Shown: positions 26,121 through 64,000 of the stretch, one piece after another | How the letters are laid out: every line of letters begins with the position of its first letter | How positions within the stretch are numbered: position 1 is the stretch's first letter | NCBI GenBank assembly: GCA_965200245.1 | Contig: CBDATS010000005.1 | Location: 288,001-352,000, forward strand | Origin: a bacterium | Lineage (GTDB): Bacteria > UBA8248 | DNA length: 64,000 nt | Reading direction: 5' to 3' | Notes under the pieces: generated by a model | Seen by the model: only the letters and a program-made list of their open reading frames with translations | Databases searched by the model: none | Told to the model about the DNA's origin: nothing | Position numbers and translations under genes: made by a program

Positions 26121-26246
26121 GAAACTTTACCGAAAAATGAACTTCGGGATCTGAAAATAACCCGATCCATCGTATAGAAGTATTTGCATCCGCTCAAACC
26201 TTCTCCTAAAGTGTCATGAGATCGCTCTACATTTTTGGAGAAAACC

Positions 26247-26768
26247 ATGAAGCGAACCCTTATCTGCATAGTCGCCGTCGCAATTCTCGCCGCGTTCTGG
26301 ACGTTCCACCAGGTCGGCGCAGCGGGACTCGGACCGGGCGCGCGCGCACCCGAACTCAGGGGCGGTCCCTGGCTAGGCGGTGAACCCTTGAAACTCGCCG
26401 ACCTGCGTGGCAAGGTCGTTCTGATCGACATGTGGACGTTCGCCTGAATCAATTGCGTGCGGGAGATCCCCACGCTGCGTTCGTGGCACGAACGCTACAA
26501 GGACAAGGGGCTGGTCGTCATCGGAAACCACGCACCCGAGTTTGACTTCGACAGGAAAAAAGAAAACGTCGCAGACGCCATGGCCAAACTCGGCATCAAA
26601 TACCGCGTCGTGCTGGACAACGATTTCACCAACTGGGACGCCTTCAAGAATCGCTTCTGGCCGACGAAATACCTGATCGACAAAAAAGGCATCGTGCGCT
26701 TCAAGACGATCGGCGAGGGTAACCACGCACGCACCGAGGCGCTCATCGTGAAGCTGCTCGCAGAGTGA
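26247..26768 (+). CDS. Exported TlpA/DipZ-like redoxin, predicted selenoprotein (Sec67, UINC)
   Basis: ORFs 26235..26447 and 26457..26768 share one frame joined by TGA 26445-26447: LRGKVVLIDMWTFA-U-INCVREIP; HAPEF, WPTKYLIDKKG; N-terminal hydrophobic signal; hairpin 26455-26475. Confidence 0.88.
26455..26475 (+). promoter_or_regulatory. Candidate bacterial SECIS hairpin
   Basis: GCGTG(c)GGG-AGAT-CCC-CACGC, loop 16 nt after UGA with G at second position. Confidence 0.55.
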
Positions 26769-46956: not shown

Positions 46957-47049
46957 CCCTTGTCGCTTTCTGAGCGAGGATGCGACAAGCTAAGAACAAT
47001 TACGTCAAACGCCTCCGGGCGAATCATGATAAGGAATGGAGGATTTCCC

Positions 47050-48180: not shown

Positions 48181-49313
48181 TGAAGCCCAGCTACGATGAG
48201 GAGAAACTCGATCGCCTGATGGAAGAGGCGGGCGTCGATCTGATTCTGGCGCACACGCCTCACAACATCCGCTACCTGACGGGTGGCTACTACTTTCACT
48301 TCCGCGAAAGGGTGACCGCCATCGGGCCGAGCCAGTACCTGCCCTTTGTGGGGATTCCGCGGAGCAACCCCGAAAACGCCTTTCACGTGGCCTGGCAGGT
48401 CGAGGCCTCACCGCGCAACGAGACAGCCACCTGGATACCCGAGGTTATCTACACGAAAGCGCGCGGCACCGTAGGTGCTGCGGAGACGGCGGCCGAGGCC
48501 GTGAGGAAACGCGGGCTGAATGAGGGAACCATCGCCGTCGAGCGAGCCTTCATGCCTGTGGACGCGATGGAAACACTTGCACGCGAACTTCGCGGCGCTC
48601 GTTTCGTCGATTCCCTAGAGATCCTCGAAGAGCTTCGCGCCGTGAAGAGAGAAGACGAACTCGAGATATTCCGGCGCGCCGCGCTTGCGGATGCACAGGC
48701 CATCCAGGCGGGCTTCGAAGAGGGCGCACACGGCGTAACGACCCGGAGGATCGAGCAAAAGGTGGAGGAGGGAATGGTGCGTCGCGGGCTCCATTTCCAT
48801 TACGCCTTCACGGCGGCGGGACCGGGCATGCGGCGCGAGCCTTCGGATAAAATCTGGGAGAAAGGAGAGATCCTCCATATCGACGCGGGAGGTTCCGAGG
48901 CCGGCTACATGTCCGACATCTGCCGGATGGGCGTGCGGGGCAAACCCTCCCCTCTCGCTATAGATTTGCACAAGGCGTGCCTCCACACGGTAGACGCCTG
49001 CCGTGACGCCATCCACGCAGGCGCAAGTTGCGCCTCGGCGCACGAGCGGGGCAACCAAGCGTTTGCGGATACGGGCTATTCCGGCATGGGCATCTTCGAG
49101 GTCCACGGCATCGGCATGGTGCAGCAGGAGTTGCCGCGCTTCGGCCCCGGTGTGGAACGCGCGCTTGAGGCGGGCATGGTAGTATCGGTGGAATGCGATA
49201 TCCGCCACCCCGAGGTCGGCCACGTGAAGATTGAAGACGCCGTTGCCGTCACCGAAGACGGCTGCGAGGGACTCGGGGATCTTGGCAGGGATGCCTGGAC
49301 CCGCATAGACTGA
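48177..49313 (+). CDS. M24 protein, paralog 2
   Basis: HIDAGG..YMSD, HGIG..QE, VSVE, KIED; ATGA overlap. Confidence 0.85.
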   Translation: MMKPSYDEEKLDRLMEEAGVDLILAHTPHNIRYLTGGYYFHFRERVTAIGPSQYLPFVGIPRSNPENAFHVAWQVEASPRNETATWIPEVIYTKARGTVGAAETAAEAVRKRGLNEGTIAVERAFMPVDAMETLARELRGARFVDSLEILEELRAVKREDELEIFRRAALADAQAIQAGFEEGAHGVTTRRIEQKVEEGMVRRGLHFHYAFTAAGPGMRREPSDKIWEKGEILHIDAGGSEAGYMSDICRMGVRGKPSPLAIDLHKACLHTVDACRDAIHAGASCASAHERGNQAFADTGYSGMGIFEVHGIGMVQQELPRFGPGVERALEAGMVVSVECDIRHPEVGHVKIEDAVAVTEDGCEGLGDLGRDAWTRID

Positions 49314-49348
49314 CAGGAATCGATTCACAGAAACGGAGGAGAATTATT

Positions 49349-49933
49349 ATGCCGAGACCACCCAAGAGTTTCATGCGGCTTCAGCACGCCGCCGTCAAGG
49401 TACACGACATCGAGGCGGCCAAGGATTTCTACGTGAACACGCTGGGCTTCACCATTTCGGAGATTTACGAGCCTGGCACGGTGGGTGACTTCCCATTCGG
49501 CCTTTGCTTCATGCGGTGCACGGAGCTTCACCACGACATGAACCTCATCTTCTGGCCCGAGGGCGAAGGCCCCTCCCCGCCCGAAGGACGGACGTTCGAC
49601 ACGATACAGACGGGCCTGCACCATATCGCGTTCGAGGTAGAAGACCGCACGCAACTCGAATCCTGGGCATCCTACCTCGAAGAGAAGGGAATCGAAATCT
49701 TCTGGGGGCCTTCCATCCACAGCCCTACACACCCCGAAGGGGACGGCTTCTGGGGTGAGAACCACGCACTCTACATCGCGGACCCGTCGGGCAACTGCAT
49801 CGAGATATTCTGCGACATGGCCGTGATGAACCCCTACACGAACCGTGTGAACGAAGACTGGTTCCGGGACAGGCTCTCACGCGATGGTCACCCGCGCGAC
49901 GCGGCTGCACCCCCCGAAGCCTGGCGGCCATGA
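49349..49933 (+). CDS. VOC/glyoxalase family protein (extradiol dioxygenase-like)
   Basis: LQHAAV, HHD, GLHHIAF, DPSGNCIE. Confidence 0.85.
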   Translation: MPRPPKSFMRLQHAAVKVHDIEAAKDFYVNTLGFTISEIYEPGTVGDFPFGLCFMRCTELHHDMNLIFWPEGEGPSPPEGRTFDTIQTGLHHIAFEVEDRTQLESWASYLEEKGIEIFWGPSIHSPTHPEGDGFWGENHALYIADPSGNCIEIFCDMAVMNPYTNRVNEDWFRDRLSRDGHPRDAAAPPEAWRP

Positions 49934-50704
49934 ACCTGCCTGAATCACACAAGCCGCCAGGGAAGGAATCACAAAGCACGATGACGGCGATGTCCCCGCA
50001 TGCGCCGCATCCAGCCGCCGGGTTCTGGTTGACAAGACTCTGCCAGGCCAGAAATACCCCTCTTGCACGAAGGTGACGGGAGGAAAGTCATGGATTCCTC
50101 CAAAAGTGCGTCCGCGCGCGTCAGGGAACGCTATCCGCTTCGGTAAACCGCCTGTGAGAGTCACCACCGCCCTGGCACGGGCCGAGTACGAGTGCAGCCC
50201 GCCGGGAGTGGAGGCCGCCTGTTCGTCCTCCACCTTCGAGCCGTCCGGGTACAACGTATTCTACAGCCTTGATAAGGATGGCATGGACGAGACAGGCGGT
50301 GACCGCACCATCAGACTCTCCAGAAGAAATTATCAGGATGCTGACAATAATCCATAGTACCCCCAATAGATTCAATGACTCGGATGGATATTTTCGAATT
50401 CATTCATGGTCATGCTTGCTCTATTCAAATTATTGATATTGCTTATTTTATAGCTTTCTTTTCAGCTTTGCCCTGTAATTTCCGACAAACATGAGCGTAT
50501 CTCACCAGGATTCGGAACCGAAGCAAGTTTTCCGGGTCCCGTGTATTTGCCTGCACTTGTGCAGGGTCTCCGCGAAGTTCCGCTTCTCCGGAGTGGATTC
50601 GGTGGGCCGAAACTGCCCCTGACATTCGGGAAGGGCATTTTCGATTCCGGCGCAACGTGGTATATTCGGCGCATATCCACGCCGCTACGGGAGACGCGCC
50701 CTAC

Positions 50705-53500
50705 ATGGAGATGAATCCGCAGGAAATCGAAAAGACGCCGATAGGCGGGAACGGCTCGTCCGCGAACGGGGCGAACCTGGACGGCTCCGGCGATTCGAGA
50801 TATCCGCCAGACTCGACGGACGTTCCCGCAGACGAGATCGAATCGGAACTCGACAGAATTGAAAGGGATGAGTGGATCGAATCGCTCGACTACGTACTCC
50901 AGATCAAGGGTCCCGAGCGAACGAAGGCGCTGCTTCGAGACTTGCAGGTCCATGCCGTACGATCGGGCGTCGTACGGCCATTTTCAGCGAATACCCCCTA
51001 CATCAACACAATCCCACTGGAAAAACAGCCGCCGTTCCCCGGGGATCGGGCTATAGAGCGGCGCATCAAAAGCCTCGTCCGCTGGAATGCGATGGCCATG
51101 GTGGTGCGCGCCAACAAGGAAGACTCCTCCATCGGCGGACACATCTCCACCTACGCCTCGGCGGCCACGCTTCTGGAAATCGGGTTCAACCACTTCTTCC
51201 GGGGCAAGGACCACCCCTGCGGCGGTGACATCATCTACTTCCAGGGCCACAGCGCACCTGGCATCTACGCGAGGGCGTTCCTTGAGGGACGCCTGACGGA
51301 GCGGAACCTCGAGAACTTCCGGCGAGAACTCAGAGCAGGTGGTGGCCTCTCCTCCTACCCGCATCCCTGGCTTATGCCCGATTTCTGGGAATTTCCCACC
51401 GTGTCGATGGGTCTTTCCCCGCTGATGGCAATCTACCAGGCACGCTATCTGCATTACCTGGAAGACCGGGACCTCAAGCCTGCGACGGGTCAGAAGGTTT
51501 GGGCGTTTCTGGGCGACGGTGAGATGGACGAACCCGAATCGCTCGGCGCAATTACCCTGGCCGCACGGGAGAAGCTCGACAACCTCATTTTCGTCATCAA
51601 CTGCAATCTTCAGCGCCTCGACGGTCCGGTGCGGGGCAACGGAAAAATAATCCAGGAACTCGAGGCCGCCTTCCGGGGCGCGCGTTGGAACATTATCAAG
51701 GTCATCTGGGGCGACGACTGGGACCCTCTCGTCGCAATGGATGACGAGGGCGTTCTGCTCCGGCGAATGAACGAGACTGTTGACGGCCAGTACCAGAAAT
51801 ACAGCGTCGAGACCCTCAGGAGAGGCGACTACGTGCGCGAGCACTTCTTCGCAGGAGACCCGCGATTGCAGGCGATGGCCGACACCATGACCGACACCCA
51901 ACTTTATCGAATGCGCCGCGGCGGGCACGACCCCGAAAAAGTGTTCGCCGCCTATCAAGCCGCCATGGCGTGCAAGGATCGTCCCACGGTCATCCTTGCC
52001 AAAACGATAAAGGGCTACGGACTTGGCGAGGGCGGCGAGGGCAGGAACGTTACCCACCAGCAGAAAAAGCTCAACGAGGATGAACTCAAGGAATTCCGGA
52101 CGCGTTTCGAGATCCCAATATCTGACGAGGAAGTGGCTCAGGCACCGTTTTACAGGCCGGCGGACAACAGTCCCGAAATTCTATACCTCAAGGACAAACG
52201 GGAAAAACTCGGCGGGTATGTTCCCGCGAGACGAAACGTTTTCACGCCACTCAAGCCGCCGCCCGGTTCGTTGTTCGAGGAGTTCCAGCAAGGTACGGAG
52301 GGGCGCGAAGTCTCGACTACCATGGTGTTCGTCAGAATCTTGAGCAGGCTTCTCCGCGACAAGGGGCTCGGCAATCTCATCGTGCCCATCGTACCCGACG
52401 AGGCCAGAACATTCGGCATGGAAACCCTCTTCAGGCAAATCGGAATCTATTCCCACATCGGCCAGTTGTACGAACCCGTCGACCGCGACAGCCTTCTGAA
52501 TTACAGGGAAGCCCGGGACGGACAAATACTCGAAGAAGGAATCACCGAAGCGGGTTCGATGGCTTCATTTATCGCCGCCGGAACCGCATACGCCACCCAT
52601 GGCGTAAATACCATCCCGTTTTACATCTACTACTCGATGTTCGGCTTGCAGCGAATCGGCGATCTCATATGGGCGGCAGCAGATATGTGCGCGCGGGGTT
52701 TCCTGATCGGGGGAACAGCCGGCAGGACCACCCTCAACGGGGAGGGGCTCCAGCACCAGGACGGCAATAGCCACCACCTCGCGTATCCCGTACCCAACCT
52801 GCTCACCTACGACCCGGCGTTTGCCTACGAGATGGCGGTAATTATCGAGGACGGGATTCGCAGGATGTACCAGGAACAGGAGAATATCTTCTATTACCTC
52901 ACCGCCTACAACGAGAACTACGCCATGCCGCCGATGCCGGAAGGGGTGCATGAGGGCATTTTGAAAGGCATGTATCTCTTCAAGGGTTCGGAGACAGACT
53001 CCGGCCTGAAAGCGCAGTTGCTGGGCAGCGGTACCATTATGAACGAGGTGCTCAAGGCGCAGGAAATCCTTGGGAAACAATATTCGATTTCCGCGGACGT
53101 CTGGAGCGTGACGAGTTACAAGGAACTCCGACGCGACGCCCTTGAAGCCGAGCGATGGAATATGCTGCACCCCGACAGCGCGCCGAAAGTACCTTATGTG
53201 ACGCAATGCCTCGCACGTACGCCCGGCATTTGCGTGGCAGCCACCGATTACGTGAAAGCTATACCCGATTCGGTCTCGAAATGGGTGCCCAGACCCATGA
53301 TTTCGCTGGGAACCGAGGGTTTCGGAAGAAGCGAGTCAAGAGAATCACTGAGAGATTTCTTCGAAATCGACGCACGTTATATTACACTCGCCACCTTGTA
53401 CAGCCTGGCGCGCGAGAAGAAGATATATCCCGAACTCGTGAACAAGGCAATGAAAGACCTGGATATCGACCCTGAAAAAAGCAACCCGATGACTTCCTGA
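50705..53500 (+). CDS. aceE: Pyruvate dehydrogenase E1 (homodimeric type)
   Basis: GGHIST, FQGH, GDGEMDE, NCNLQRLDGP, PDEARTFG, GEGLQHQDG; start approximate. Confidence 0.95.
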   Translation: MEMNPQEIEKTPIGGNGSSANGANLDGSGDSRYPPDSTDVPADEIESELDRIERDEWIESLDYVLQIKGPERTKALLRDLQVHAVRSGVVRPFSANTPYINTIPLEKQPPFPGDRAIERRIKSLVRWNAMAMVVRANKEDSSIGGHISTYASAATLLEIGFNHFFRGKDHPCGGDIIYFQGHSAPGIYARAFLEGRLTERNLENFRRELRAGGGLSSYPHPWLMPDFWEFPTVSMGLSPLMAIYQARYLHYLEDRDLKPATGQKVWAFLGDGEMDEPESLGAITLAAREKLDNLIFVINCNLQRLDGPVRGNGKIIQELEAAFRGARWNIIKVIWGDDWDPLVAMDDEGVLLRRMNETVDGQYQKYSVETLRRGDYVREHFFAGDPRLQAMADTMTDTQLYRMRRGGHDPEKVFAAYQAAMACKDRPTVILAKTIKGYGLGEGGEGRNVTHQQKKLNEDELKEFRTRFEIPISDEEVAQAPFYRPADNSPEILYLKDKREKLGGYVPARRNVFTPLKPPPGSLFEEFQQGTEGREVSTTMVFVRILSRLLRDKGLGNLIVPIVPDEARTFGMETLFRQIGIYSHIGQLYEPVDRDSLLNYREARDGQILEEGITEAGSMASFIAAGTAYATHGVNTIPFYIYYSMFGLQRIGDLIWAAADMCARGFLIGGTAGRTTLNGEGLQHQDGNSHHLAYPVPNLLTYDPAFAYEMAVIIEDGIRRMYQEQENIFYYLTAYNENYAMPPMPEGVHEGILKGMYLFKGSETDSGLKAQLLGSGTIMNEVLKAQEILGKQYSISADVWSVTSYKELRRDALEAERWNMLHPDSAPKVPYVTQCLARTPGICVAATDYVKAIPDSVSKWVPRPMISLGTEGFGRSESRESLRDFFEIDARYITLATLYSLAREKKIYPELVNKAMKDLDIDPEKSNPMTS

Positions 53501-53520
53501 TTCAAATCCCGAGGGAGTTC

Positions 53521-54921
53521 ATGGCCATCGAACTCAAACTCCCCGAATTCGGGGAAAACATCACGTCCGGAAAAGTGATCGCCGTCCTAGTGAATGTGGG
53601 AGAAACAATAGAGGCGGATCAGTCGGTCATCGAAGTGGAAACTGACAAGGCGCTGATTGAAGTCCCCTCTTCCGTCGGGGGCAGGATAACGGAAATCCAT
53701 CTCAAACCCGGCGATGACGCCAAAGTAGGAGGAACCATTCTCGTCATCGAGGAAAGCGAAGGCGACACGGGGACTGTTCCGAAAGATGAAATTTTTGAGG
53801 AAATCACTTCGAGTACCGACGAGCCGACGGAACCGCAAGAAACTCAACCCATGCCACCAGACGAGACCTCTCCTGCGACGCAGGCCGAAGAACCCGTCAC
53901 GGAAGATGCCGCATCTTCGGGGGTTTCTCCCGGTTCCGAAGGGGTCCCACCCGAAACGCCTGCACCGGAGACTCCCGAAACCTCTGCACCGGTATCCCCC
54001 CAAAAACCCGCGCCCGCTGCACCCTCCGTGCGAAGAGTCGCTCGTGAGGCGGGTGTCGACATAAGCGACGTGCCGGGCAGCGGGATTGGAGGCAGGATAT
54101 CCGCGCAAGATGTTCGGGACTTCGTGGCGGCGCAAGGTGGAGCCACCGTGCCAGATACACCTGCGCCCGTGCTGTTGAGTGCGCCCGTTCAATTGCCCGA
54201 CCTCGCCCGCTGGGGAGAGATTGAACGCACGCCAATGTCTGGAATCAGACGTTCGACCTCGATGAACCTCTCCCGCTCGTGGACCCAGATCCCCCATGTG
54301 ACCCAGTGCGAAAAAGCCGATATTTCAGAACTCGATGCATTGAGAAAAAAATTCGCCCCGAAGGCGGAGGCCGCAGGCGGCAAACTCACCATCACCGCCA
54401 TTTTGATGAAAGTCATCGCCTCGTCCCTCAAGGTATTCCCGCAATTCAACGCGAGCGTTGACGCGGCGTCGAATGAAATCGTCTACAAGAACTACGTGCA
54501 CGTGGGCGTCGCTGTGGACACCGAAAACGGTCTGCTCGTCCCGGTGATTCGGGATGCTGGCAGGAAGAACATCATCGAACTTTCCGTGGAACTGAACGAA
54601 GTTGCGGAGCGCGCCCGCGCACGGAAACTCTCGCCGGACGAGATGCAGGGCGGTTCTATCACCATCACGAATCTGGGTGGCTTCGGCGGGACGTATTTCA
54701 CCCCGATAGTGAACTGGCCCGAAATCGCCATACTCGGCGTCTCCCGGGCACGAATGGAACCGGTGTGGAAGGCGGCCGAGGAGAAATTCGAACCGCGCCT
54801 CATGCTTCCACTTATGGTTTCATACGATCACCGCGTCATCGACGGGGCAGACGGCGTCAAATTCCTGAGGTGGGTGGCTGACGCACTCGAAGAACCCATG
54901 CTCATGAGCCTTGAGGGTTGA
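53521..54921 (+). CDS. aceF: Dihydrolipoamide acetyltransferase E2, single lipoyl domain
   Basis: ETDKA lipoyl site, PSVRR..GSG.GGRI E3-binding domain, DHRVIDG. Confidence 0.92.
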   Translation: MAIELKLPEFGENITSGKVIAVLVNVGETIEADQSVIEVETDKALIEVPSSVGGRITEIHLKPGDDAKVGGTILVIEESEGDTGTVPKDEIFEEITSSTDEPTEPQETQPMPPDETSPATQAEEPVTEDAASSGVSPGSEGVPPETPAPETPETSAPVSPQKPAPAAPSVRRVAREAGVDISDVPGSGIGGRISAQDVRDFVAAQGGATVPDTPAPVLLSAPVQLPDLARWGEIERTPMSGIRRSTSMNLSRSWTQIPHVTQCEKADISELDALRKKFAPKAEAAGGKLTITAILMKVIASSLKVFPQFNASVDAASNEIVYKNYVHVGVAVDTENGLLVPVIRDAGRKNIIELSVELNEVAERARARKLSPDEMQGGSITITNLGGFGGTYFTPIVNWPEIAILGVSRARMEPVWKAAEEKFEPRLMLPLMVSYDHRVIDGADGVKFLRWVADALEEPMLMSLEG

Positions 54922-55086
54922 ACCAGCCTCTCGAAGCGAGATGCATCAGCCTGACTGGGTATGAGAACACAACCCACCCTCATGAACCTTCCAGTTTGAG
55001 CACCCCCACCGGCGCCCACAGAAACCTCCGGGTATGATTCCATCCGCCCGTGGTTTCCGCCAATTCGTCTTTGGGGTACATATTCG

Positions 55087-55665
55087 ATGACAAATCTCCT
55101 GGGCGACTGGAATTTCCTTCAATCATGGTGGTGGAAACCCTACGTCAAACCCCTCATCGGCCTGGGCTGGTTCGCAGGTGTCATCGCCCTGGGAGCGATC
55201 ATCTTCTTAGCCGTCATGGGAAGCGCCAGACTCTCCGAGTATAGAGATGCCTTTTTCTCTCCCAAAGAACCCGAGATTCCCGAGGACGAAGCGGCCCTCG
55301 TCGAATTTATGGAGTCATTCTTCCCGGAAGCATCGGAAGATGACATCATCTTGATGGAGCAAATCCTTGACGAAGTGATAAAGGAGGATATTCATCCGCA
55401 AATGGCGCGCGAAATCGAGGCCCGGGGGATATCGGTCCGGCTCCTGGTGCTCCCGCCTCCCGAAATCGTACGTGCGGTGGGAAACTACCCTGTAGCCGCG
55501 TGGATTCCCTCCATCAACGCGATCGAGATCTACGCATCAATCGTCAAGAGCGAGTGTCGGCAGAACCCAAACCGTTACAAAGAACTGATAGGCGATTTGC
55601 TACTGCACGAGATCGGCCACGCACTGGGTCTGGATGAACCGAAAATCAAGGATTTCGGTGTGTAG
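55087..55665 (+). CDS. Membrane-anchored minimal zincin metallopeptidase-like protein
   Basis: N-terminal TM helix; LLHEIGHALG. Confidence 0.65.
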   Translation: MTNLLGDWNFLQSWWWKPYVKPLIGLGWFAGVIALGAIIFLAVMGSARLSEYRDAFFSPKEPEIPEDEAALVEFMESFFPEASEDDIILMEQILDEVIKEDIHPQMAREIEARGISVRLLVLPPPEIVRAVGNYPVAAWIPSINAIEIYASIVKSECRQNPNRYKELIGDLLLHEIGHALGLDEPKIKDFGV

Positions 55666-55670
55666 CGTTT

Positions 55671-57191
55671 CTAGTCGTGCGCTTCGTGCCCGTTCAGGTC
55701 GGCGGGGTCGGTCACCTCGATGCTTCCACTAAGCCCGAACAAGCGTTGCATCTTCTTCCTGAAAGAAGGCGTAAAGAGTTTTTCGGCGTAAAACCGGCCT
55801 GCCACCCTTTTGTTCACCTGCGCGAGCGTGGGATATACGTGCACCGTATCCACTACTTCCTTGATGTGCATTTTCTTGCGGACGGCCAGTACGAACTCGT
55901 GCAGTATCTCCCCCGCCGCAGGTCCAACCAAGTCGGCCCCCACGAGCCTACCCTTCTCGTCGCACACGACCTTGCACACACCCTCCGTCTCCCCGTCCAG
56001 GACTGCGCGGTCCACCCGGCTCATCGGAAAACGCAAGACCTGAAATCGATTCGCCCCCAAGGCAGCCTCGGCGTCGGCTTCACTCAAGCCCACGTGCGCT
56101 GCCTCGGGTGTTGTATAGATGGTCCACGGCACGGCATCATAGCTGGCCTTTTTCTTGAGGAACGGGACAGGAATCCCGAAAGGCGAACTGAAGAGCATGT
56201 TCCTGAGTGCCACTCCCGCCTCGTACTCGGCCATGTGAGTGAAGAGATACTGACCCCTGATATCACCGGCGGAGAAAATACGGGGATTCGTGGTTTGCAG
56301 ATATTCATCCGTCTCCACGCCGCGTCGGGAGTATTTGACGCCCGCTTTTTCCAGATCCATCCCGCCGACGTTGGGTGTTCGGCCAGTCGCGATCAAGAGT
56401 TGATCGCAGGTCCATTCCCTCTTCCCCGACGGCGTATCGGCCTGCAAAAATATCTCTTCGCCACGTTTCTCGATTCTTTGCGTATCCACATTGAAATGGA
56501 GTCGGAGACCGGACTGCGTCAGGGAATCAGAGAGAATCCCGGCCATTTCCTTGTCGAGTCTCGGGAGGAGTTTCGGCGCGCTTTGCAATACCTCCACCTC
56601 GGCGCCGAGTTGCTGAAAGGCCTGGGACAGTTCCAGACCGATGGGACCGGCCCCCAGCACTACCAAGCGCCTCGGCAACTCCTCCAGGTCGAAAACGGTT
56701 TCGTTCGTGAGGTAGGGCACGTCGTCGATACCGGCGATAAGCGGCACGAAGGGAGAACTCCCCGTTGCCAGCAAGAACCTTTTGGCCCGCAGGGTTCTGG
56801 CCCCTACCTGAAACGTATCGGGACCGGAAAAGGCTCCATCCCCGAATATCACTTCGATGCCCATGCCCTCGAAGCGCTCGGGCGCGTCGTGTTCGCCGAT
56901 GTGGGCCTGGGCCGCTTTCATGCGCTTCATGACGCGGGGGAAATCGATACGCACTTCGCCCACATCAACCCCGAACTCGGACATCGAGCGTGCCTGTGCT
57001 GCCAGCCGCGCCGAGCGGATCAACCCTTTCGAGGGCACGCATCCATAGTTCAGACAGTCACCTCCGAGCTTTGTCTTCTCGACGAGCGCGACCTTGGCAC
57101 CCAGTTGCGCTGCACCAACGGACGCCACCAGACCGCCGACCCCTCCACCGATTGCTACCAAATCAAACCCAGACTCTTTTTGCATCTTCAC
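55671..57191 (-). CDS. Class I pyridine nucleotide-disulfide oxidoreductase (mercuric-reductase-like, no C-terminal Cys pair)
   Basis: GGDCLNYGCVPSK, GAGPIG, ATGRTPN, HVYPT. Confidence 0.85.
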   Translation of the reverse strand: MKMQKESGFDLVAIGGGVGGLVASVGAAQLGAKVALVEKTKLGGDCLNYGCVPSKGLIRSARLAAQARSMSEFGVDVGEVRIDFPRVMKRMKAAQAHIGEHDAPERFEGMGIEVIFGDGAFSGPDTFQVGARTLRAKRFLLATGSSPFVPLIAGIDDVPYLTNETVFDLEELPRRLVVLGAGPIGLELSQAFQQLGAEVEVLQSAPKLLPRLDKEMAGILSDSLTQSGLRLHFNVDTQRIEKRGEEIFLQADTPSGKREWTCDQLLIATGRTPNVGGMDLEKAGVKYSRRGVETDEYLQTTNPRIFSAGDIRGQYLFTHMAEYEAGVALRNMLFSSPFGIPVPFLKKKASYDAVPWTIYTTPEAAHVGLSEADAEAALGANRFQVLRFPMSRVDRAVLDGETEGVCKVVCDEKGRLVGADLVGPAAGEILHEFVLAVRKKMHIKEVVDTVHVYPTLAQVNKRVAGRFYAEKLFTPSFRKKMQRLFGLSGSIEVTDPADLNGHEAHD

Positions 57192-57245
57192 ATCCTCTCA
57201 ATACGGCAAAAAACGCTTATCCTGCGAAAACTCGGAACAACCCGC

Positions 57246-58772
57246 TCAGGACGCCTCCCTGTCCAGCAGTTTGAACCCGAAGGCGAAAAACAGGATTGCC
57301 ATGAACAGATAACCGGCGGCTATGCCGGGCGCCGCCCCCCAACCGAAGAAGCTGACGACACCACCGGGCGTGATCCGCCAGGCGTGGATGACCCCGAACC
57401 AGCTCAATACCGCTCCGGCCAACGCCCACCCTCCCGCCTGTTTCGGCTCCTTGTCGAGAAGTTTCGCAACGATGGCTGTCAGGATGACTGACGTGAAAAG
57501 AAAGCCGCGCTCCAGGGTGACCATACCCACGAGATGGAATCCCGCCTTGGCAAACGCTTCCTCTCCCACCTTCCACAAGCTCGTGCCCGCTCCCCTCAGG
57601 GAGGATTCCACCATCAGCAGACCCCACGCGGCGATGGCGGGTATCAAGCCGATCACTACAGCCGGACCGTGGCGCGCAGGTGAAGCCTGAAACGCCTGGG
57701 TGAGCATCATCACCCCGATCCAGAGCATGAGTGCGAAGAGCGCATCACCGGGGATGATCTTCGAAAGTGCCGCAATCGAACCGGTGAAGCACAGAACCGT
57801 CATCACGACCCCGTTCAAGGCACTGTAACCTGCGCGGGCACCCATCTTCTTCCAACCCGGATGTCCTATATATATGGTTGTTGGAAAACAACTCCCCAGA
57901 CATGCCGCAAGCAGCGAGCCCGCGCCATTCACCGCCAGGGAACTGCTCGTCTCGTAATCATCGCCCGCGGCAGCTGCGCTTTCCAGACACATCAGGCTGC
58001 CCACCAGCGTCATCAGACCCATGGGAATGGAAACCGCGAGGTAATCCCAAGCCAGCGGACCGAAGAGAGCATCAAACAAAGGACCAAAGGCGGAAGATGG
58101 AATCGCAAGACCCACAGGCGCGGGAATTCCTTCCGGAAATCCCTTGACGATGGCGGACAAAACCACTCCCGCCGCCACCGCCACGAGGCCGCCCGGCAAT
58201 CCGAAAGGAAAGCGGAACCCGCCGAAATAATGGACGAGGATGATCCCCAAGGGAATCATGGCGACAAGCGGGTGCTCCCAGATTCTGAAGGCGAAATCCA
58301 TCGAGATAAACGTGAGCGCGATGCCTCCCAAAGCCGAGAGCAAAGCGGTACGCGGCGCGACCCGCCTGATATGCTTACCCAACAGCGAACCCGCCGTTTC
58401 GATTATCCCGCTCACAAAACAGGCCGCCAGACCCGCCTGCCAGGCCGCCTCGGCGCTTCCGGTCTTGAGTTTCACGGGCAGCATCACGAAAAAGATGAAC
58501 GCGAAAAGTGTGACCGTGTTGATACCGTAGGGCATGGCGGTTACATCGTCCCGGTCCTCGCGCACAGCCAGGCGCCGCGCCTGCCAGGTGTAGAAGAGGT
58601 TCCCGCCCAGAAGACTCAGGGCCGCTGCAGGCAGCACGCGCGCGAAGATGAGTGAATCGGGAAAACCCAGCAGCCCTTTCAGGAAACTCACTATCAACAG
58701 AAGATTAATTAGGTTGTCCATCCACAGGCCAAAGAAGCCGTCGACGTCACCCTTCACGAACCATTTGGGCAT
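57246..58772 (-). CDS. NCS2/AzgA-like nucleobase permease
   Basis: GDVDGFFG, TAMPYGIN, ESAAAAGD.Y, PTTIYIGHPG.K.MGAR.GY; many TM helices. Confidence 0.8.
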   Translation of the reverse strand: MPKWFVKGDVDGFFGLWMDNLINLLLIVSFLKGLLGFPDSLIFARVLPAAALSLLGGNLFYTWQARRLAVREDRDDVTAMPYGINTVTLFAFIFFVMLPVKLKTGSAEAAWQAGLAACFVSGIIETAGSLLGKHIRRVAPRTALLSALGGIALTFISMDFAFRIWEHPLVAMIPLGIILVHYFGGFRFPFGLPGGLVAVAAGVVLSAIVKGFPEGIPAPVGLAIPSSAFGPLFDALFGPLAWDYLAVSIPMGLMTLVGSLMCLESAAAAGDDYETSSSLAVNGAGSLLAACLGSCFPTTIYIGHPGWKKMGARAGYSALNGVVMTVLCFTGSIAALSKIIPGDALFALMLWIGVMMLTQAFQASPARHGPAVVIGLIPAIAAWGLLMVESSLRGAGTSLWKVGEEAFAKAGFHLVGMVTLERGFLFTSVILTAIVAKLLDKEPKQAGGWALAGAVLSWFGVIHAWRITPGGVVSFFGWGAAPGIAAGYLFMAILFFAFGFKLLDREAS

Positions 58773-58944
58773 CCGGGTCCCCCTGCTCAAGACCGGCAAG
58801 TTCCAACCGAGCGCGACTCGTCCAGGATAGTAATACACGCTGCCTGATTCGCCAAAACACCCAGGCCTTTTTCTCAACCCGGTCGTTTTGATATGCTCTA
58901 TTCATAAACAAATAACCCTTTAGCGATCACCAGGGAGAAAAGCG

Positions 58945-59697
58945 ATGGAAGCTGTCAAAGTCTACACGCGGCACGGTTGATATACCTGCGCACTTACGAG
59001 AGAGTTTCTCTCGTCCAATGGCCTTGAAGTCTTAAACCGCGACTGCACGAACGATGCCGAAGCACAGGCCGAACTCAAGGAGCTTGGCATCAAGGCCCTG
59101 CCTGTCGCCGTTCGAGGTGAGAATGTGGTGGTGGGCTATGATGTGGACGCGCTCCGCGAGGCTTTCGACATCGAACAGGAAGGCACAGGCCCCCTCTCGC
59201 CCGAAAAGATGCTCCACTATTTCGAGATGGTCTTTGACGCACTGCGCCGCGTCGTTCGCCAGATACCGCACGAAACGCTCAACTGGGTATCTCCGGGCAG
59301 GCCCCGCACGCTGCGCCAACTCACCTGGCACAGCTTCGAACGTCCCGATATCGTGATGCAGACCTTTGCAACGGGCGAATACACCGAGGGGATGGTGCGC
59401 CGCTACGAGACGCTAGCGAACGACTACAACACCACAGAAGACATTTGCGCCTACGGCGATGAAATACAGGCGAAGCTCACCGATTTTCTCACCGCAGGCC
59501 GCGAGGCGCTGGCACAGAAGGTGTCGAGCTACATGGGACCCATCACCGTACATGAGTTGATGATTCTCGCACTTGGGCACGCCTTCCAGCATCTGCGGCA
59601 AACCTATCATTATTTTGAAATGCTGGAGATTACGCCGGAAAATCCTCTAGAGCCCGAGGACTACGCAGAGGTGCCCGTGCCCAAGGATCTGTTCTAG
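58945..59697 (+). CDS. Glutaredoxin/NrdH-like (Sec12, UYTC) - DinB domain fusion, predicted selenoprotein
   Basis: SD GGGAG, ATG 58945, VKVYTRHG-TGA(58978-58980)-YTC..TREFL...G.KALPV....VVGYD in frame with ORF 59125..59697; DinB motif LTWH...HAFQH. Confidence 0.85.
58996..59014 (+). promoter_or_regulatory. Candidate bacterial SECIS hairpin
   Basis: Perfect 8-bp stem ACGAGAGA-GTT-TCTCTCGT, G-initiated loop 23 nt after UGA. Confidence 0.7.
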
Positions 59698-59727
59698 TCC
59701 AGACCTGAATTTCGAGGAGGTCGTCCG

Positions 59728-61005
59728 ATGCCCTCTAAAGACATGTTCCCTCTCCGCGCGAACCGCGCCCGCATGAGACGTGAATTCAACGCCCAGGCAA
59801 AGATCGGCAAATACGGAAAAACAGGCCTGGATCGCGTAGCCTTTACGCCGGCCTACAACGAGGTGTGCGACCTGGTCGAGGGCTGGATGAAGACGGCGGG
59901 TCTCGAAACCCGCGTCGACGCCGTGGGAAATCTGTACGGAAGAAAAGAGGGCCGCGTACGCGAGTTCCCCGCCGTAATGGCAGGCTCTCATCTCGATTCC
60001 CAAAGCCCGGGCGGGCGGTTCGACGGCCCCGCGGGCGTTCTTACTGCTCTGGAGGCAGTTCGGCGCATCAGCGAGACGGGACTCGACCACGACCATCCAA
60101 TCGTGGTGGTGGCCTTCGTGGGAGAGGAATCCGCATGCGGGATGACGGTGTTCGGCAGCAGCGTCGCCACGGGTGTCGCGGGGTTGAAGGACCTGAGGAA
60201 CACCGTGCATCCGCCCACTGGAAAATCGTTGTACGAGGCGATCGAGGCAGCGGGCGGGAATCCCTCGCGCGTGCGCTCGTGCCGGATACGGGAAGGATCG
60301 CTCAAGGCGTTCCTGGAGCTTCACATCGAACAGGGCCCTGTACTCGAGTCGGCCGAAGTACCCATCGGCATCGTGGACAAGGTAGTGGGATACACGAGAG
60401 GCGAGGTTCACTTCGAGGGAGTGGCGGCGCACTCGGGCGGACAACCCATGCCCTATCGCAATGATGCCGGTATGGCGGCGGCGGACTTTATGCTGCGCAT
60501 GGAGGACGCCGCGAGACGCGCACCCGAGTCCCAGCGTGTGACGATCACCTTCGGCGAAATGGAAGCGCTCCCCGGGTGGGTGTCCATCGTGCCAGGAGGT
60601 GCCAGGCTTTCCTTTGACCTCAGGAGCAGAAGCCAGGCGGTAATGGAAAGCACCCTTGCACGCATGGAAAAGACGCTCGCCGCCATCGAGAAACAACGCG
60701 GCGTGCGTGGCCGCCTCTCGGACATCAAAACACTGCCCGTCTGTCCCGCCTCCGCCAACATTCAACGGGCGCTCCGGCGCGCATCCAAGGAGACGGGCCA
60801 CGCCGCACTCACGCTTTCGAGCGGCGGAGTGCATGACGCCTGCCGCATGGCAACGATATGCCCGATGGGCATGGTATTCATCCCCTCGGTGGGTGGGCTT
60901 TCGCACACACCCGAGGAGTTCACTCACTTCGACGATATGGTGAAGGGGGCTGAAATCCTCGCATCCGCAATCGCACACCTCGCCAACGAGAACGTGAAAG
61001 CGTAA
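59728..61005 (+). CDS. M20 Zn amidohydrolase (allantoate amidohydrolase / N-carbamoyl-amino acid hydrolase family)
   Basis: GSHLDS, GGRFDG..GV, GEE, ELHIEQGP, HDA, SHTPEE. Confidence 0.9.
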   Translation: MPSKDMFPLRANRARMRREFNAQAKIGKYGKTGLDRVAFTPAYNEVCDLVEGWMKTAGLETRVDAVGNLYGRKEGRVREFPAVMAGSHLDSQSPGGRFDGPAGVLTALEAVRRISETGLDHDHPIVVVAFVGEESACGMTVFGSSVATGVAGLKDLRNTVHPPTGKSLYEAIEAAGGNPSRVRSCRIREGSLKAFLELHIEQGPVLESAEVPIGIVDKVVGYTRGEVHFEGVAAHSGGQPMPYRNDAGMAAADFMLRMEDAARRAPESQRVTITFGEMEALPGWVSIVPGGARLSFDLRSRSQAVMESTLARMEKTLAAIEKQRGVRGRLSDIKTLPVCPASANIQRALRRASKETGHAALTLSSGGVHDACRMATICPMGMVFIPSVGGLSHTPEEFTHFDDMVKGAEILASAIAHLANENVKA

Positions 61006-61213
61006 GGTGAAAACCTGCAGACGAATCGTTTCCTGTTCGCTCATGCTTCTCCCCCTGACATCCCGTCGATTCTATTTGTGAAGCGAGTTTTTTTGTGTTA
61101 GATTCCGCCGTCTAATCGCTCAGACAGGTAACAGGAATCTGTTGCCGCAGATTCTTTCGCGGCGTGATGTCTCGAAACCGGAGTTCCAAGGACAAAATCG
61201 AGAGGGAGAAAAA

Positions 61214-62473
61214 ATGGGCAGGATAATCAGGCACGTCATTCTTGGGTTTGCGTTGCTCCTCGCGGTGAGTATCGCTTTCACGCCTTCGGCACGGGCGGCC
61301 AAAGAAGTAAAGATCGGCTTCAGCATGGCGCTGACCGGGCCGCTCGGCCCCGCGGGCAAGGCGGCGCTTCTGGCCATGCAGATATGGCGCGACGACGTAA
61401 ACGCCAAGGGCGGATTGTTGGGCCGGAAGGTCAAGCTAGTATACTATGACGATCAGACGAAACCAGCCAATGTTCCCGGCATCTACGCCAAACTGCTCGA
61501 CGTGGACAAGGTGGACTTCATCGTCTCGGGCTACGGAACGAACCTCATCGTTCCCGCCCTGCCTATAGCCATGGAACGGGGCATGGTGTTCATGGGCCTG
61601 TTCGGTCTGGATGCGAACGCGAAGTTCAAATACAACAATTACTTCCAAATCATGCCGGCCGGCCCCGACCCGATTGTGGACTGGTCGAGCGGCTTTTTTG
61701 AACTCGCCGCGAGGCAAAAACCCCGCCCCAAGACAATAGCGCTGCTCTCGGCAGATTCCGAGTTCGCGCGCAACGCCGTGGCCGGTGCCCGCCGCAACGC
61801 GAAGAAATATGGCTTCAAGGTGGTCTACGACCAACGCTACCCCTTCCCCGGGACAACCGACTTCACGCCAATTCTGCGCGCCGTCAAGGCCGCGAACCCG
61901 GATCTCTTCTACGTGGGTTCCTACCCGGGCGGTTCGGTGGGCATTGTGAAGGCCGCACATGAGATCGGCCTGGAACCCAAGCTCTTCGGGGGCGGCATGG
62001 TGGGACTTCAGTACACTGCCATCCAGATGAACCTCGGCAAGCTGTTGAACGGCATCACGAACTACTGGTTCTGGGCGCCGGAGAAAACCCTGAAGTTCCC
62101 CGGCATTGAGGCCTTCCTGGCGAAATACCAGAAAGAAGCGCCCAAGCAGAAACTCGACCCGCTGGGCTACTACCTGCCACCTTTCGCCTATGCCTACGTA
62201 CAGCTGCTCGGCAATGCGATCGAGGCCACCAAGAGCTTCGATCAGGCGAAGATCGGCGCCTACATCCGCAACAACACCCATTCCACCGTGGTCGGAAACG
62301 TGAAGTTCGGCAAGAACGGCGAGTGGGCGACTTCCCGGACGTTCCAGGTGCAACTCCAGAACATCACAAGCAACAAGATGAGCGAGTTCAGCAAAGAAGG
62401 CAAAATGGTCGTGCTGTATCCTGATGAATTCAAATCCGGAAACCTCATCTACCCATACGCGAAAGGCAAGTAA
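61214..62473 (+). CDS. Branched-chain amino acid-type ABC substrate-binding protein
   Basis: Signal peptide, LTGP, NAKGGLLGR, YDD. Confidence 0.9.
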   Translation: MGRIIRHVILGFALLLAVSIAFTPSARAAKEVKIGFSMALTGPLGPAGKAALLAMQIWRDDVNAKGGLLGRKVKLVYYDDQTKPANVPGIYAKLLDVDKVDFIVSGYGTNLIVPALPIAMERGMVFMGLFGLDANAKFKYNNYFQIMPAGPDPIVDWSSGFFELAARQKPRPKTIALLSADSEFARNAVAGARRNAKKYGFKVVYDQRYPFPGTTDFTPILRAVKAANPDLFYVGSYPGGSVGIVKAAHEIGLEPKLFGGGMVGLQYTAIQMNLGKLLNGITNYWFWAPEKTLKFPGIEAFLAKYQKEAPKQKLDPLGYYLPPFAYAYVQLLGNAIEATKSFDQAKIGAYIRNNTHSTVVGNVKFGKNGEWATSRTFQVQLQNITSNKMSEFSKEGKMVVLYPDEFKSGNLIYPYAKGK

Positions 62474-62491
62474 CGAACCGGACATAAAATC

Positions 62492-62522
62492 CAGGCCGGG
62501 GGAGACATCTTCCCCCGGCCTG
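62492..62522 (+). other. Intercistronic GC-rich stem-loop after the binding-protein gene
   Basis: CAGGCCGGGGGA-GACATCT-TCCCCCGGCCTG, no U-tract; typical of mRNA-stabilising hairpins in ABC operons. Confidence 0.6.
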
Positions 62523-62549
62523 CTTACGGCTCGTCGCAGGGGGGTAACC

Positions 62550-63422
62550 ATGCTCAGCTTCGAATTCCTGTTGAACGCACTTATAGCGGGCATCCTGCTG
62601 GGGGGCTTCTACGCCGCAATAAGCGCTGGGCTTTCGCTCTCCTTCGGTTTACTGGACGTCGTGAACATCGCTCATCCGGCATTCATTCTCTTCGGCTCCT
62701 ATCTGACCTTCTACGTGAACGAGCACTTCGGATTGGACCCGGTACTCGCCGGTCTCGTCTTTGCTGTTCCCTCCTATTTCGTGGGCGTCGCGGTCTATCG
62801 CATCTACTACAACAGCTTCGAGAAGACGGGGGCGGAATCCCTGCGCGGACTGGTTTTCTTTTTCGGACTCTTTTTCCTTATCGAGGTCATCCTCATCATC
62901 ACCTTCGGTGTGGACTACCGCCTCGTCCGCGCGTTTTATATCGGCAAGTCCACCTCCATCGGATCGGTGGGAATCGCCTACAGGTTGTTCGTGCCCTTCC
63001 TCATGGGAGGGATACTTGCGATCGTTCTGTACCTGTTTCTCACAAAAACCTTTTTCGGGCGCGCCATCATGGGTGTGGCGCAGGACAGCCTCGCCGTCCA
63101 GCTCATGGGAGTGGATCCGATACGCATCAAGACGGTCGCCTTCGGCATCGGCATCGCCACGGCCGTACTCGCGGGGTCTTTACTCATCATTATCGGCCCG
63201 GTCGAGCCGACCATCGGACGGGAGTACATCGGCCGCGTGTTCGCGGTCACCGTCCTCGGCGGGCTGGGCAGCATGACGGGTACGCTCGTGGGCGCGCTTA
63301 TCCTGGGTGTCGCAGAGAGTTTCACCTCTTCGTTCTTCGGTCCCTCCTGGGCTCTGGCCGTCTCGTTCGGTATCCTGCTCATCTGCCTGGCGGTCCGGCC
63401 GTCCGGCCTGTTCGGGAGATAG
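62550..63422 (+). CDS. ABC permease (LivH-like)
   Basis: GLSLSFG..VVNIAH, FGRAI, VLGGLGS, RPSGLFG. Confidence 0.9.
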   Translation: MLSFEFLLNALIAGILLGGFYAAISAGLSLSFGLLDVVNIAHPAFILFGSYLTFYVNEHFGLDPVLAGLVFAVPSYFVGVAVYRIYYNSFEKTGAESLRGLVFFFGLFFLIEVILIITFGVDYRLVRAFYIGKSTSIGSVGIAYRLFVPFLMGGILAIVLYLFLTKTFFGRAIMGVAQDSLAVQLMGVDPIRIKTVAFGIGIATAVLAGSLLIIIGPVEPTIGREYIGRVFAVTVLGGLGSMTGTLVGALILGVAESFTSSFFGPSWALAVSFGILLICLAVRPSGLFGR

Positions 63423-63426
63423 TTTC

Positions 63427-64000
63427 TTGAACAAGGAAAGAACACTTTTCCTCATCGTGGCCGTCGTGCTGATCATCGGATCATTCGTCATCACGACCCA
63501 GATGGAGAACCGCTTCTACTACAAGGCAGCCTACGTCGTCTTGCAGTATGTCGTCCTGGCGACTGCATGGAATATCCTAGGCGGCTACACCGGATATGTA
63601 AACTTCGGCACCGCGGCTTTCTTCGCTATGGGCGCCTACACCGCTGTGGCACTCATCAAGACATGGAAGCCACCCCTGTACGTTCTGCTCGTCACAGGGG
63701 GCCTTGTTTCGGGACTTCTGGGGCTCGGTATCGGCTACCTCACTTTAAGACTCAAGGGTGTCTTCTTTTCCATCGCCACGCTCGCGCTGGCTGTCGTGCT
63801 CCAGATGCTCATCTCGAACTGGAGTTACGTGGGCGGGGGTGCGGGCACGGCCATACTGAAACCCAGGAGTGTGCCGCTGTTCTCGAACTACGACGAGTTC
63901 CTCTTTTTCGTCATGGCGGCGCTCGCTGTGGTCTCCGTGGCCATCGCCTGGCTCATCGAGAAATCCTGGGTCGGACGGGGGATGGCCGCCATTCGTGACA
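63427..64000 (+). CDS. ABC permease (LivM-like), 3' truncated
   Basis: TTG 63427; AWNILGGYTGYVNFGTAAFF, LRLKGVFFSIATLA; open to window end (not in ORF track). Confidence 0.85.
   Translation, partial: MNKERTLFLIVAVVLIIGSFVITTQMENRFYYKAAYVVLQYVVLATAWNILGGYTGYVNFGTAAFFAMGAYTAVALIKTWKPPLYVLLVTGGLVSGLLGLGIGYLTLRLKGVFFSIATLALAVVLQMLISNWSYVGGGAGTAILKPRSVPLFSNYDEFLFFVMAALAVVSVAIAWLIEKSWVGRGMAAIRD

Follow-up and report, generated by a model that had tools for sequence, protein, structure and literature searches.

We analysed a 64,000-nt window of bacterial DNA (GenBank assembly GCA_965200245.1, contig CBDATS010000005.1, positions 288,001 to 352,000 of the forward strand; GTDB lineage UBA8248) and studied a gene that starts with the ATG at position 58945 of this window and carries an in-frame TGA as its codon 12. 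Judging from comparison with related sequences, it is almost certainly a genuine and expressed selenoprotein gene, in which the UGA is decoded as selenocysteine (Sec) via a hairpin located 15 nt downstream, giving rise to a two-domain protein of 250 residues. Its anatomy comprises a UxxC glutaredoxin/NrdH-like domain, a DinB-fold domain with a three-histidine site and, after the TGA, a hairpin that resembles a selenocysteine insertion sequence (SECIS). What is new here is that a seleno-glutaredoxin (Grx) is joined to a DinB metalloenzyme, both parts being of known kinds.

Direct reading of the window revealed a single in-frame TGA within the frame from ATG 58945 to the TAG at 59697, and the N-terminus of the read-through product of 250 residues is MEAVKVYTRHG-U-YTC. 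As the TGA lies at codon 12, calling of open reading frames (ORFs) with translation table 11 yields only a 190-residue ORF from the GTG at 59125. The sequence motifs named in the original prediction, which had been made from the nucleotide letters of the window, were all recovered in the 250-residue frame, i.e., VYTRHG-U-YTC, ALPV with Pro53, VVGYD and the H...HxxxH triad (His129, His212 and His216). Likewise, the proposed transition of a glutaredoxin domain into a DinB-like domain was borne out by Pfam profiles for both domains, which score above threshold in this one frame.

To gain insight into the conservation of the TGA, close relatives were collected from 51 genomes of the phylum, 40 of which gave a match, resulting in 42 match rows. 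Exactly one TGA was present in 39 of these rows; the other three hold partial matches, truncated at contig ends, whose first matched query residues are 28, 61 and 163. All 39 loci read as an ATG, ten conserved codons, the TGA and then [YF]-[TS]-C. They span seven genera, with identities to the window protein ranging from 100% down to 48%, and the ATG start and the length are kept throughout. Within codons 13-60, the numbers of variable sites at codon positions 1, 2 and 3 are 23, 17 and 46, which matches the pattern in the rest of the gene (129, 97 and 185). This third-position excess indicates that the stretch from the TGA to GTG 59125 is under protein-coding selection. Two doubts attached to the original prediction, that the first 60 codons might not resemble a glutaredoxin and that the protein might initiate at 59125, could be examined at this point. 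The Pfam Glutaredoxin profile matched at residues 4-56, codons 13-60 evolve as coding sequence, and contigs assembled from RNA libraries cross both the TGA and GTG 59125 (see below).

The wider family is mostly recorded in truncated form. A search of a word-indexed protein database returned 43 relatives at E <= 0.001, of which 41 start 3' of the Sec codon, are 154-233 residues long and are named 'DinB family protein' or are unnamed; the remaining two have 250 residues with Trp at the Sec position, the TGA having been read as Trp by the gene caller. An exhaustive HMMER search yielded 503 cluster representatives at E <= 0.001, including 141 at E <= 1e-10. Among the 149 representatives listed, CxxC occupies the Sec position in 46 full-length ones (CSSC in 23, CTSC in 17 and six other variants once each), W in one, and 102 are without the N-terminal motif. 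Many of the latter begin with MKEFLS, MTKEFLS or MLSS, a few residues past the site.

Distant Sec forms were sought by scanning metagenome contigs with an alignment of nine truncated forms. At least 600 stretches matched and at least 582 were confirmed as relatives by one motif pattern; 80 of the confirmed relatives were kept for reading. TGA-x-x-Cys was found at the aligned position in 78 of these 80 distant loci (as UFTC, USSC, UFSC, USAC or UTSC), while one of the remaining two shows a stop followed by SSG and one is cut by a contig end. A scan of genome contigs gave the same lineage only (30 loci; Nitrospinota, Nitrospinaceae or Tectomicrobia). One of the two patterns used in it demanded Cys in place of Sec, and no Cys orthologue of the gene's own subfamily came up, which is a weak negative.

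Cys forms are present in cultured Variovorax, Caballeronia, Burkholderia, Roseomonas and Rhizobium leguminosarum, where they are annotated as 'glutaredoxin domain-containing protein' or 'DinB family protein'. They resemble the window protein in two-domain architecture and length (247-276 residues), in a PG-C-[ST]-S-C motif that aligns with U-x-x-C, in an RPRxxR loop and in a W-H-x-x-Q-H motif. However, they differ by having Cys for Sec, by an identity of only 22-31% to the window protein (full-length forms), by the lack of a hairpin after the codon in all five genes read and in their gene neighbourhoods; they are likewise uncharacterised. The Grx-DinB fusion is not unique to this subfamily, since both full-length Cys homologues (CSSC/CTSC) and many other Sec subfamilies exist. 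In a FastTree phylogeny of 210 rows, from which the redox-motif columns had been removed, a single Sec/Cys change suffices for the rows of verified state, but the branch that separates the two states has a support of only 0.34, and on the Cys side of this tree sit also 37 N-truncated rows from outside the verified set.

Three side observations concern the family at large. A metagenome representative of 721 residues (P0181) has an MmgE/PrpD domain fused to a Cys-form Grx-DinB protein and was the only such fusion seen; a search for longer homologues gave no further fused forms. In Variovorax sp. SRS16 (locus L167), the Cys form has an MmgE/PrpD gene at a distance of ~6 kb. A second, divergent copy of the gene with 45-48% identity occurs in two genomes that belong to the same genus; one of these copies is complete (L051, G047:C20:672-1436; 255 residues, UFSC, TGA kept, without an M20 neighbour) and the other cut by a contig end (L056, G049:C349).

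The hairpin after the TGA reads ACGAGAGA-GTT-TCTCTCGT in its DNA form, and the first base of its loop lies 23 nt after the UGA. Bacterial SECIS elements usually show a spacing of ~16-37 nt between UGA and loop, with G/U in the apical loop. The original prediction had called this hairpin, with its 8-bp stem and GUU loop, the strongest in the window. Stem and loop were found as described; its rank holds only as a tie, as a scan of the U/C-motif TGA sites in the window revealed two other sites that also reach 8 bp. At the gathering threshold of Rfam, no SECIS-type family was detected in the window and only two tRNAs were found.

In the alignment of the 39 sequences, 95.7% of the cells pair, compared to 31.9-73.4% when the 3' partner was slid. 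Changes on both sides occurred in two pairs: G-C became A-U in four sequences, all from a single genus of low GC content, and C-G became U-A in one sequence. In addition, A-U changed to G-U in eight sequences. Covariation of the hairpin is modest. Synonymous constraint provides the stronger evidence for it. The hairpin codons 18-23 (T-R-E-F-L-S) have a codon entropy of 0-1.17 bits, far below that of other invariant residues, with Glu20 encoded by GAG in 39 of 39 sequences and Leu22 by CTC in 35. Invariant residues beyond the hairpin that have degenerate codons vary freely in codon use, with six codons each for Arg32 and Leu44 and an almost even use of GAA (20) and GAG (19) for Glu43. Moreover, a stem of at least 6 bp in the same register is found in 36 of 36 distinct sequences of the own subfamily and in 44 of 52 distinct distant Sec sequences, and in none of five Cys-form genes from proteobacterial plasmids, despite a common T-K-E-F-L peptide; these five genes are a small control. 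An example of a distant hairpin is CGAAAGA-GUU-UCUUUCG, and stems extend up to 12 bp in the USSC clade.

The genome from which the window derives has the components of Sec insertion, each above its curated cut-off: SelB (391.9 bits), SelA (572.7 bits; encoded just upstream of SelB on the same contig), SelD (338.6 bits; G000:C8:72779-73741, minus strand, outside the window) and tRNA-Sec (75.9 bits). TGA serves as an ordinary stop in 6 of 11 genes around the locus, and thus the codon has not been reassigned. As a side observation, the SelD match itself holds one in-frame TGA, and SelD is probably likewise a selenoprotein in this genome.

If the TGA were instead a true stop, the locus would be a pseudogene, encode a DinB protein of 190 residues that starts from GTG 59125, or make a leader peptide before translation re-initiates. 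Such a reading would fit the observation that gene callers and public databases give only N-truncated proteins, of 190-233 residues. Against it stand the same TGA in 39 of 39 close and 78 of 80 distant loci over very divergent lineages, the 48 codons between the TGA and 59125 that match the glutaredoxin profile and evolve as coding, a hairpin conserved in TGA forms only, the full Sec machinery in the genome and the full length of the Cys-form orthologues. We therefore consider a true stop extremely unlikely. As judged from the comparative sequence data, which already contradict them, the pseudogene and short-ORF readings are effectively excluded.

We then turned to the two domains. The N-terminal region matches the Pfam Glutaredoxin profile (PF00462) with 33.9 bits against a cut-off of 22.9, and NCBIfam holds no dedicated model for the Grx-DinB protein. 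In the AlphaFold2 model, this region is predicted to fold into a strand (residues 4-8), a helix (13-24), a strand (29-33), a helix (38-47), two strands (54-57 and 60-63) and a helix (67-73), corresponding to a β-α-β-α-β-β-α topology over residues 1-73. U12, C15 and P53 are invariant among 25 subfamily sequences. The seleno-glutaredoxin cGrx1 from Clostridium oremlandii (PDB 7c10, 7c12) superposes well (Z 12.8, r.m.s.d. 1.5) with 40-43% identity over 70-75 residues. Common to both are a U/C-x-x-C motif where helix 1 begins, the cis-Pro loop and insertion of Sec via a hairpin just past the UGA. In the fold search, residues 1-75 also matched the thioredoxin-like protein BC3987 and NrdH. However, stand-alone seleno-glutaredoxins comprise ~75-85 residues, whereas here a DinB metal domain of 170 residues is part of the same chain and the motif reads HG-U-YTC.

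The C-terminal region matches Pfam DinB_2 (PF12867) at residues 93-219 with 29.5 bits against a cut-off of 24.8, while its score for Pfam DinB (PF05163) is below threshold (14.6, cut-off 23). A profile search of this domain against PDB sequences reached YjoA at only E 0.18; the DinB assignment rests on Pfam and on the fold. The AlphaFold2 model, built from an alignment of 25 sequences, has a pLDDT of 91.6 and a pTM of 0.85, with a helical domain from residue 86. For residues ~81-236, the top DinB/YfiT match is DR0053 from D. radiodurans (6iz2; Z 16.4, r.m.s.d. 2.3 over 143 of 144 residues), followed by at least ten further DinB entries at Z 12-14.5. Foldseek gave an E of 6.5e-5 for the DinB fold. 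Among the matches are YfiT (Z 13.7), mycothiol-dependent maleylpyruvate isomerase (MDMPI; Z 13.0) and the mycothiol S-transferase (MST) of M. tuberculosis (Z 12.8), and the DinB domains of OvsA, EgtB and SenA match at Z 10.8-12.8. Superposition of the whole chain onto GST, CLIC, DHAR and MglA is weak (Z 8.2-11.4, r.m.s.d. 4.7-6.5, Foldseek TM 0.24-0.35), a range common for helical proteins. The HxxxH motif aligns with that of the DinB-like YjoA (3dka). Besides the three histidines, R119, R121, R124, W128, E132, R133, Q215 and R218 are invariant within the subfamily, and G48, P53, H129, G198 and H216 are conserved in at least 90% of 123 diverse family members. With high confidence, we take the C-terminal domain to be a DinB/YfiT-type four-helix bundle with an invariant predicted metal site of His129, His212 and His216 and a conserved Arg-rich loop (R119/R121/R124).

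DinB/YfiT-like S-transferases are four-helix-bundle metalloenzymes that have three conserved histidines and use bacillithiol or mycothiol, as stated in the available part of PMC10950700. YfiT/BstA of B. subtilis (1rxq, 5wk0), MST (8f5v), MDMPI (2nsf) and DR0053 (6iz2) resemble our domain in fold and H...HxxxH triad, although the sequence identity is only 10-19%. Enzymes of the YfiT, MST and MDMPI type lack a redoxin domain and rely on bacillithiol or mycothiol as a diffusible thiol, whereas in the Grx-DinB protein the Sec/Cys centre is covalently attached. In EgtB, OvsA and SenA (4x8b, 8vig, 8ux5, 8k5i), the three-His metal of the DinB domain positions a sulfur or selenium nucleophile for the formation of C-S or C-Se bonds. 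The fold is again alike, at Z values common for helical bundles, but these enzymes have 390-450 residues, depend on iron and O2 and possess an FGE-like C-terminal domain that is absent here.

Table 1 Features of the Grx-DinB gene and its surroundings (positions within the window)
Feature	Position	Strand	Remarks
FAD pyridine-nucleotide-disulphide oxidoreductase, candidate reductase	55671..57191	-	Beyond the permease
Nucleobase-type (AGZA/xanthine-uracil) permease	57246..58877	-	508-543 residues; divergent, upstream; ESM Atlas
Shine-Dalgarno-like GGGAG	58933..58937	+	7 nt 5' of the start codon; read from the sequence
Grx(U)-DinB selenoprotein coding sequence	58945..59697	+	ATG start, 250 codons, then TAG stop
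Glutaredoxin/NrdH-like thioredoxin-fold domain, residues 1-78	58945..59178	+	Pfam match 4-56; cis-Pro candidate Pro53
In-frame TGA, codon 12	58978..58980	+	Read as Sec in the U-Y-T-C redox motif
SECIS-like hairpin, ACGAGAGA / GUU loop / UCUCUCGU	58996..59014	+	8 bp; begins 15 nt after the UGA
DinB-fold four-helix-bundle domain, residues ~85-236	59197..59652	+	Pfam DinB_2 match 93-219; fold matches
His129 (motif LTWH), first of the putative metal triad	59329..59331	+	Invariant in 25/25 subfamily sequences
His212-x-x-x-His216 (GHAFQH), remaining two residues of the putative metal triad	59578..59592	+	Invariant in 25/25
M20 hydantoinase/carbamoylase-family amidase	59728..61005	+	30 nt past the stop, after GAGGAGG; Pfam Peptidase_M20
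Liv/urea-type ABC transporter, substrate-binding protein and two permeases	61142..63999	+	Last gene exceeds the window

Features of the gene and its neighbours are collected in Table 1. The M20 amidase scores 344.9 on NCBIfam TIGR01879 (cut-off 204), while the models for allantoate amidohydrolase and ErtE remain below their cut-offs. Its gene lies directly downstream of the Grx-DinB gene in 32 of the 39 loci and in five of the seven genera, and no terminator-like site was found on the plus strand between the two genes. For the divergent permease, neither Pfam nor NCBIfam gave a match, even at E 0.1; the ESM Atlas clusters closest to it (0.99) carry the name AGZA-family xanthine/uracil permease, and it looks like a member of a transporter clade that lies outside the Pfam and NCBIfam models. 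The true start of this permease is probably an internal Met near 58772. It was found upstream in 27 of the 39 loci, with flanks of only 1.5 kb inspected. The FAD oxidoreductase falls below every NCBIfam cut-off (NF004991 as the best with 506 of 620, MerA 363 of 454, Lpd 350.6) and adjoins genes for PDH E1 and E2 on the opposite strand. Its adjacency to the Grx-DinB gene is confined to the own genus and to 16 of 30 loci, all at least 78% identical to the window protein. In one related genome (L070), it stands directly beside the Grx-DinB gene with no permease in between.

The RNA libraries are two metatranscriptomic runs from the same study. Each run has one contig whose start, at 58933 or 58924, lies 12-21 nt before ATG 58945. 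These 5'-starting contigs run through the TGA and past GTG 59125, and others bridge the junction 59697/59728. No RNA-library contig of either run covers 58781-58861, a stretch that is covered in a DNA-type run, and none was found over 60806-60967 inside the M20 gene. These contigs hint at an mRNA whose 5' end lies shortly upstream of ATG 58945 and which extends into the M20 gene, and the Grx-DinB and M20 genes are probably co-transcribed.

Elsewhere in the window, we observed two further selenoprotein candidates on the plus strand. A DsbA-like candidate of 210 residues (7298-7930; TGA 7349-7351) carries the motif YT-U-PFC, scores 94.4 bits on Pfam DSBA with the TGA read through and has a 7-bp hairpin after the TGA. 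An AhpC/TSA-Redoxin-like candidate of 177 residues (26235-26768; TGA 26445-26447), apparently secreted, carries FA-U-INC, scores 49.8 bits on Pfam AhpC-TSA and is followed by an 8-bp hairpin after its TGA. Furthermore, the plus strand carries, at 46960-49313, a tandem pair of M24 creatinase/prolidase-like genes with a 4-nt overlap and, after them, a glyoxalase-family gene.

With the domain architecture and the genomic context at hand, we considered what the protein might do. Our explanation as a whole, a Sec-containing Grx-DinB enzyme that combines a tethered selenolate with a metal site, appears on balance probable. The narrower proposal that it works as a self-contained analogue of the DinB-family enzymes that depend on low-molecular-weight thiols is more tentative, and we place it somewhat below an even chance. 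The models for this analogy would be the bacillithiol and mycothiol S-transferases and MDMPI, with EgtB and SenA as precedents. The original prediction had suggested in a similar vein that the selenol replaces or recycles the thiol co-substrate, for example in reductive detoxification or C-S/C-Se chemistry, which we retain as an inference by analogy. In such a mechanism, the metal site would bind and polarise a small anionic substrate, and the tethered selenolate of Sec12 would stand in for the diffusible thiol as nucleophile or reductant. Cys15 might then resolve this adduct, forming a selenenylsulfide that would be re-reduced by an external reductase, candidates for which are a thioredoxin reductase and the FAD disulphide oxidoreductase encoded nearby. 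As genes for an M20 carbamoyl-amidohydrolase and a nucleobase-type permease lie beside the gene, the substrate in this lineage is probably an N-heterocyclic or ureide compound in a catabolic or detoxification route.

The main rival to a tethered nucleophile is that Grx(U) serves as a built-in recycling or regulatory redoxin, with the DinB domain using a diffusible thiol or water. The task of the U-x-x-C centre would then be limited to reduction, either of a mixed disulphide or of the enzyme or product in an oxidised or S-thiolated state, in the way the stand-alone selenoprotein Grx1 acts for MsrA. That the nearest solved relative of the N-domain is cGrx1, at 40-43% identity, suits this idea, as do fold matches that are themselves hybrid fusions, of Prx5-Grx and Grx-FDR type (1nm3, 7pwe). 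In addition, the cGrx1 family is cited as the reductant of selenoprotein MsrA in the reference list of PMC13188914, and the M. tuberculosis MST is reported to be S-mycothiolated in the available part of PMC10950700. However, the fusion is obligate over hundreds of members with both centres invariant, which fits a joint active site at least as well, and residues that bind a low-molecular-weight thiol were not identified. We regard a role as built-in redoxin as possible, though rather unlikely. Handling of soft metals or metalloids is much less probable still. Here, Sec12/Cys15 and the His triad would serve to bind or pass on Hg, As, Se and similar elements in concert with the neighbouring MerA-like FAD oxidoreductase. 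The adjacent oxidoreductase indeed reaches 363 bits on the MerA model, albeit below the cut-off of 454, it is adjacent in the own genus even without the permease (L070), and several recently named selenoprotein families are metal-related according to the accessible text of PMC13188914. Yet this adjacency is limited to one genus and 16 of 30 loci, the oxidoreductase scores about equally on lipoamide dehydrogenase (350.6 bits) and adjoins PDH E1/E2, and no mer or ars genes were present among the ORFs scanned from 46960 to 64000. Moreover, the most widely conserved neighbours are the amidohydrolase and the nucleobase-type permease.

A more far-reaching variant of the tethered-selenolate enzyme, which we deem improbable, is that Grx-DinB proteins form a large overlooked 'cofactor-free' class of DinB enzymes. 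In these, the tethered selenolate or thiolate would act at the three-His metal or ligate it, and in this lineage the reaction would feed the M20 carbamoyl-amidohydrolase. Such an enzyme could, for example, add Se/S reversibly to a ring of nucleobase-like or (thio)hydantoin-like type, or open such a ring reductively, and thereby perform chemistry for which other DinB enzymes use bacillithiol, mycothiol or a selenosugar. If true, this would constitute a selenium-dependent step of N-heterocycle catabolism without a described counterpart.

Several observations weigh against our overall explanation of a Sec-dependent Grx-DinB enzyme. Folded alone, the hairpin has a z of only -1.14, and 31 of 200 shuffles fold as well. 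Every compensatory change goes back to just one lineage, and the observed number of covarying pairs is reached by 38 of 500 shuffles. The case for Sec beyond chance rests on conservation. The N-terminal domain stays below the cut-offs of the related NCBIfam models (YruB TIGR02196, 44.6 of 88.55; NrdH TIGR02194, 39.9 of 85.75; Uxx-star NF041212, 38.5 of 66). With respect to expression, RNA-library contigs can contain DNA, and a contig spanning two genes is no proof of a single transcript. The genomic context is variable as well: one genus of the own subfamily is without the M20 neighbour, distant Sec forms from soil adjoin an enoyl-CoA hydratase gene (22 loci) or an ammonium transporter gene (8 loci), and Cys forms reside in varied catabolic clusters, in Roseomonas with isochorismatase-family, AtzG-like and amidase genes. 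When neighbouring genes in the 80 metagenome loci were clustered, most clusters proved to be shadow ORFs with no Pfam match. As only two real neighbour clusters were obtained, there is no family-wide context.

A selenoprotein or glutaredoxin paired with DinB as a fusion was not found in the full-text literature searched; catalogue supplements, which could list the family as 'Grx', lay outside the scope of this search. The statement of the original prediction that no characterised example was known agrees with the outcome of our literature and database searches. The family table of a review from May 2026 (PMC13188914) contains 'Glutaredoxin (Grx) PF00462 UxxC' alongside many Trx/Grx-like families, and the main text of that review, as far as accessible, has no occurrence of PF12867 or PF05163. 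In the accessible main text of the BSepDB paper (PMC13326102), the terms 'glutaredoxin', 'Grx' and 'fusion' do not occur. The same portion of that paper reports 48-54 selenoprotein genes for 'Nitrospinota' metagenome-assembled genomes of the GTDB phylum UBA8248.

Taken together, our analysis bears on how selenoproteins are recorded and on how DinB enzymes may work. In the public protein records examined, members of the subfamily are without Sec and have lost the redoxin domain largely or entirely, or have the codon read as Trp. These truncated records and the at least 582 metagenome relatives imply that selenoprotein counts for bacteria from soil, groundwater, the sea and sponges are systematically too low. 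DinB-fold enzymes are known to depend on a diffusible low-molecular-weight thiol. A built-in nucleophile that has been upgraded to selenium would represent a natural experiment on how sulfur and selenium are positioned at a metal and on the catalytic advantage of Sec. Through its conserved neighbours, an M20 carbamoyl-amidohydrolase and a nucleobase-type permease, the locus also offers a concrete lead toward the substrate.

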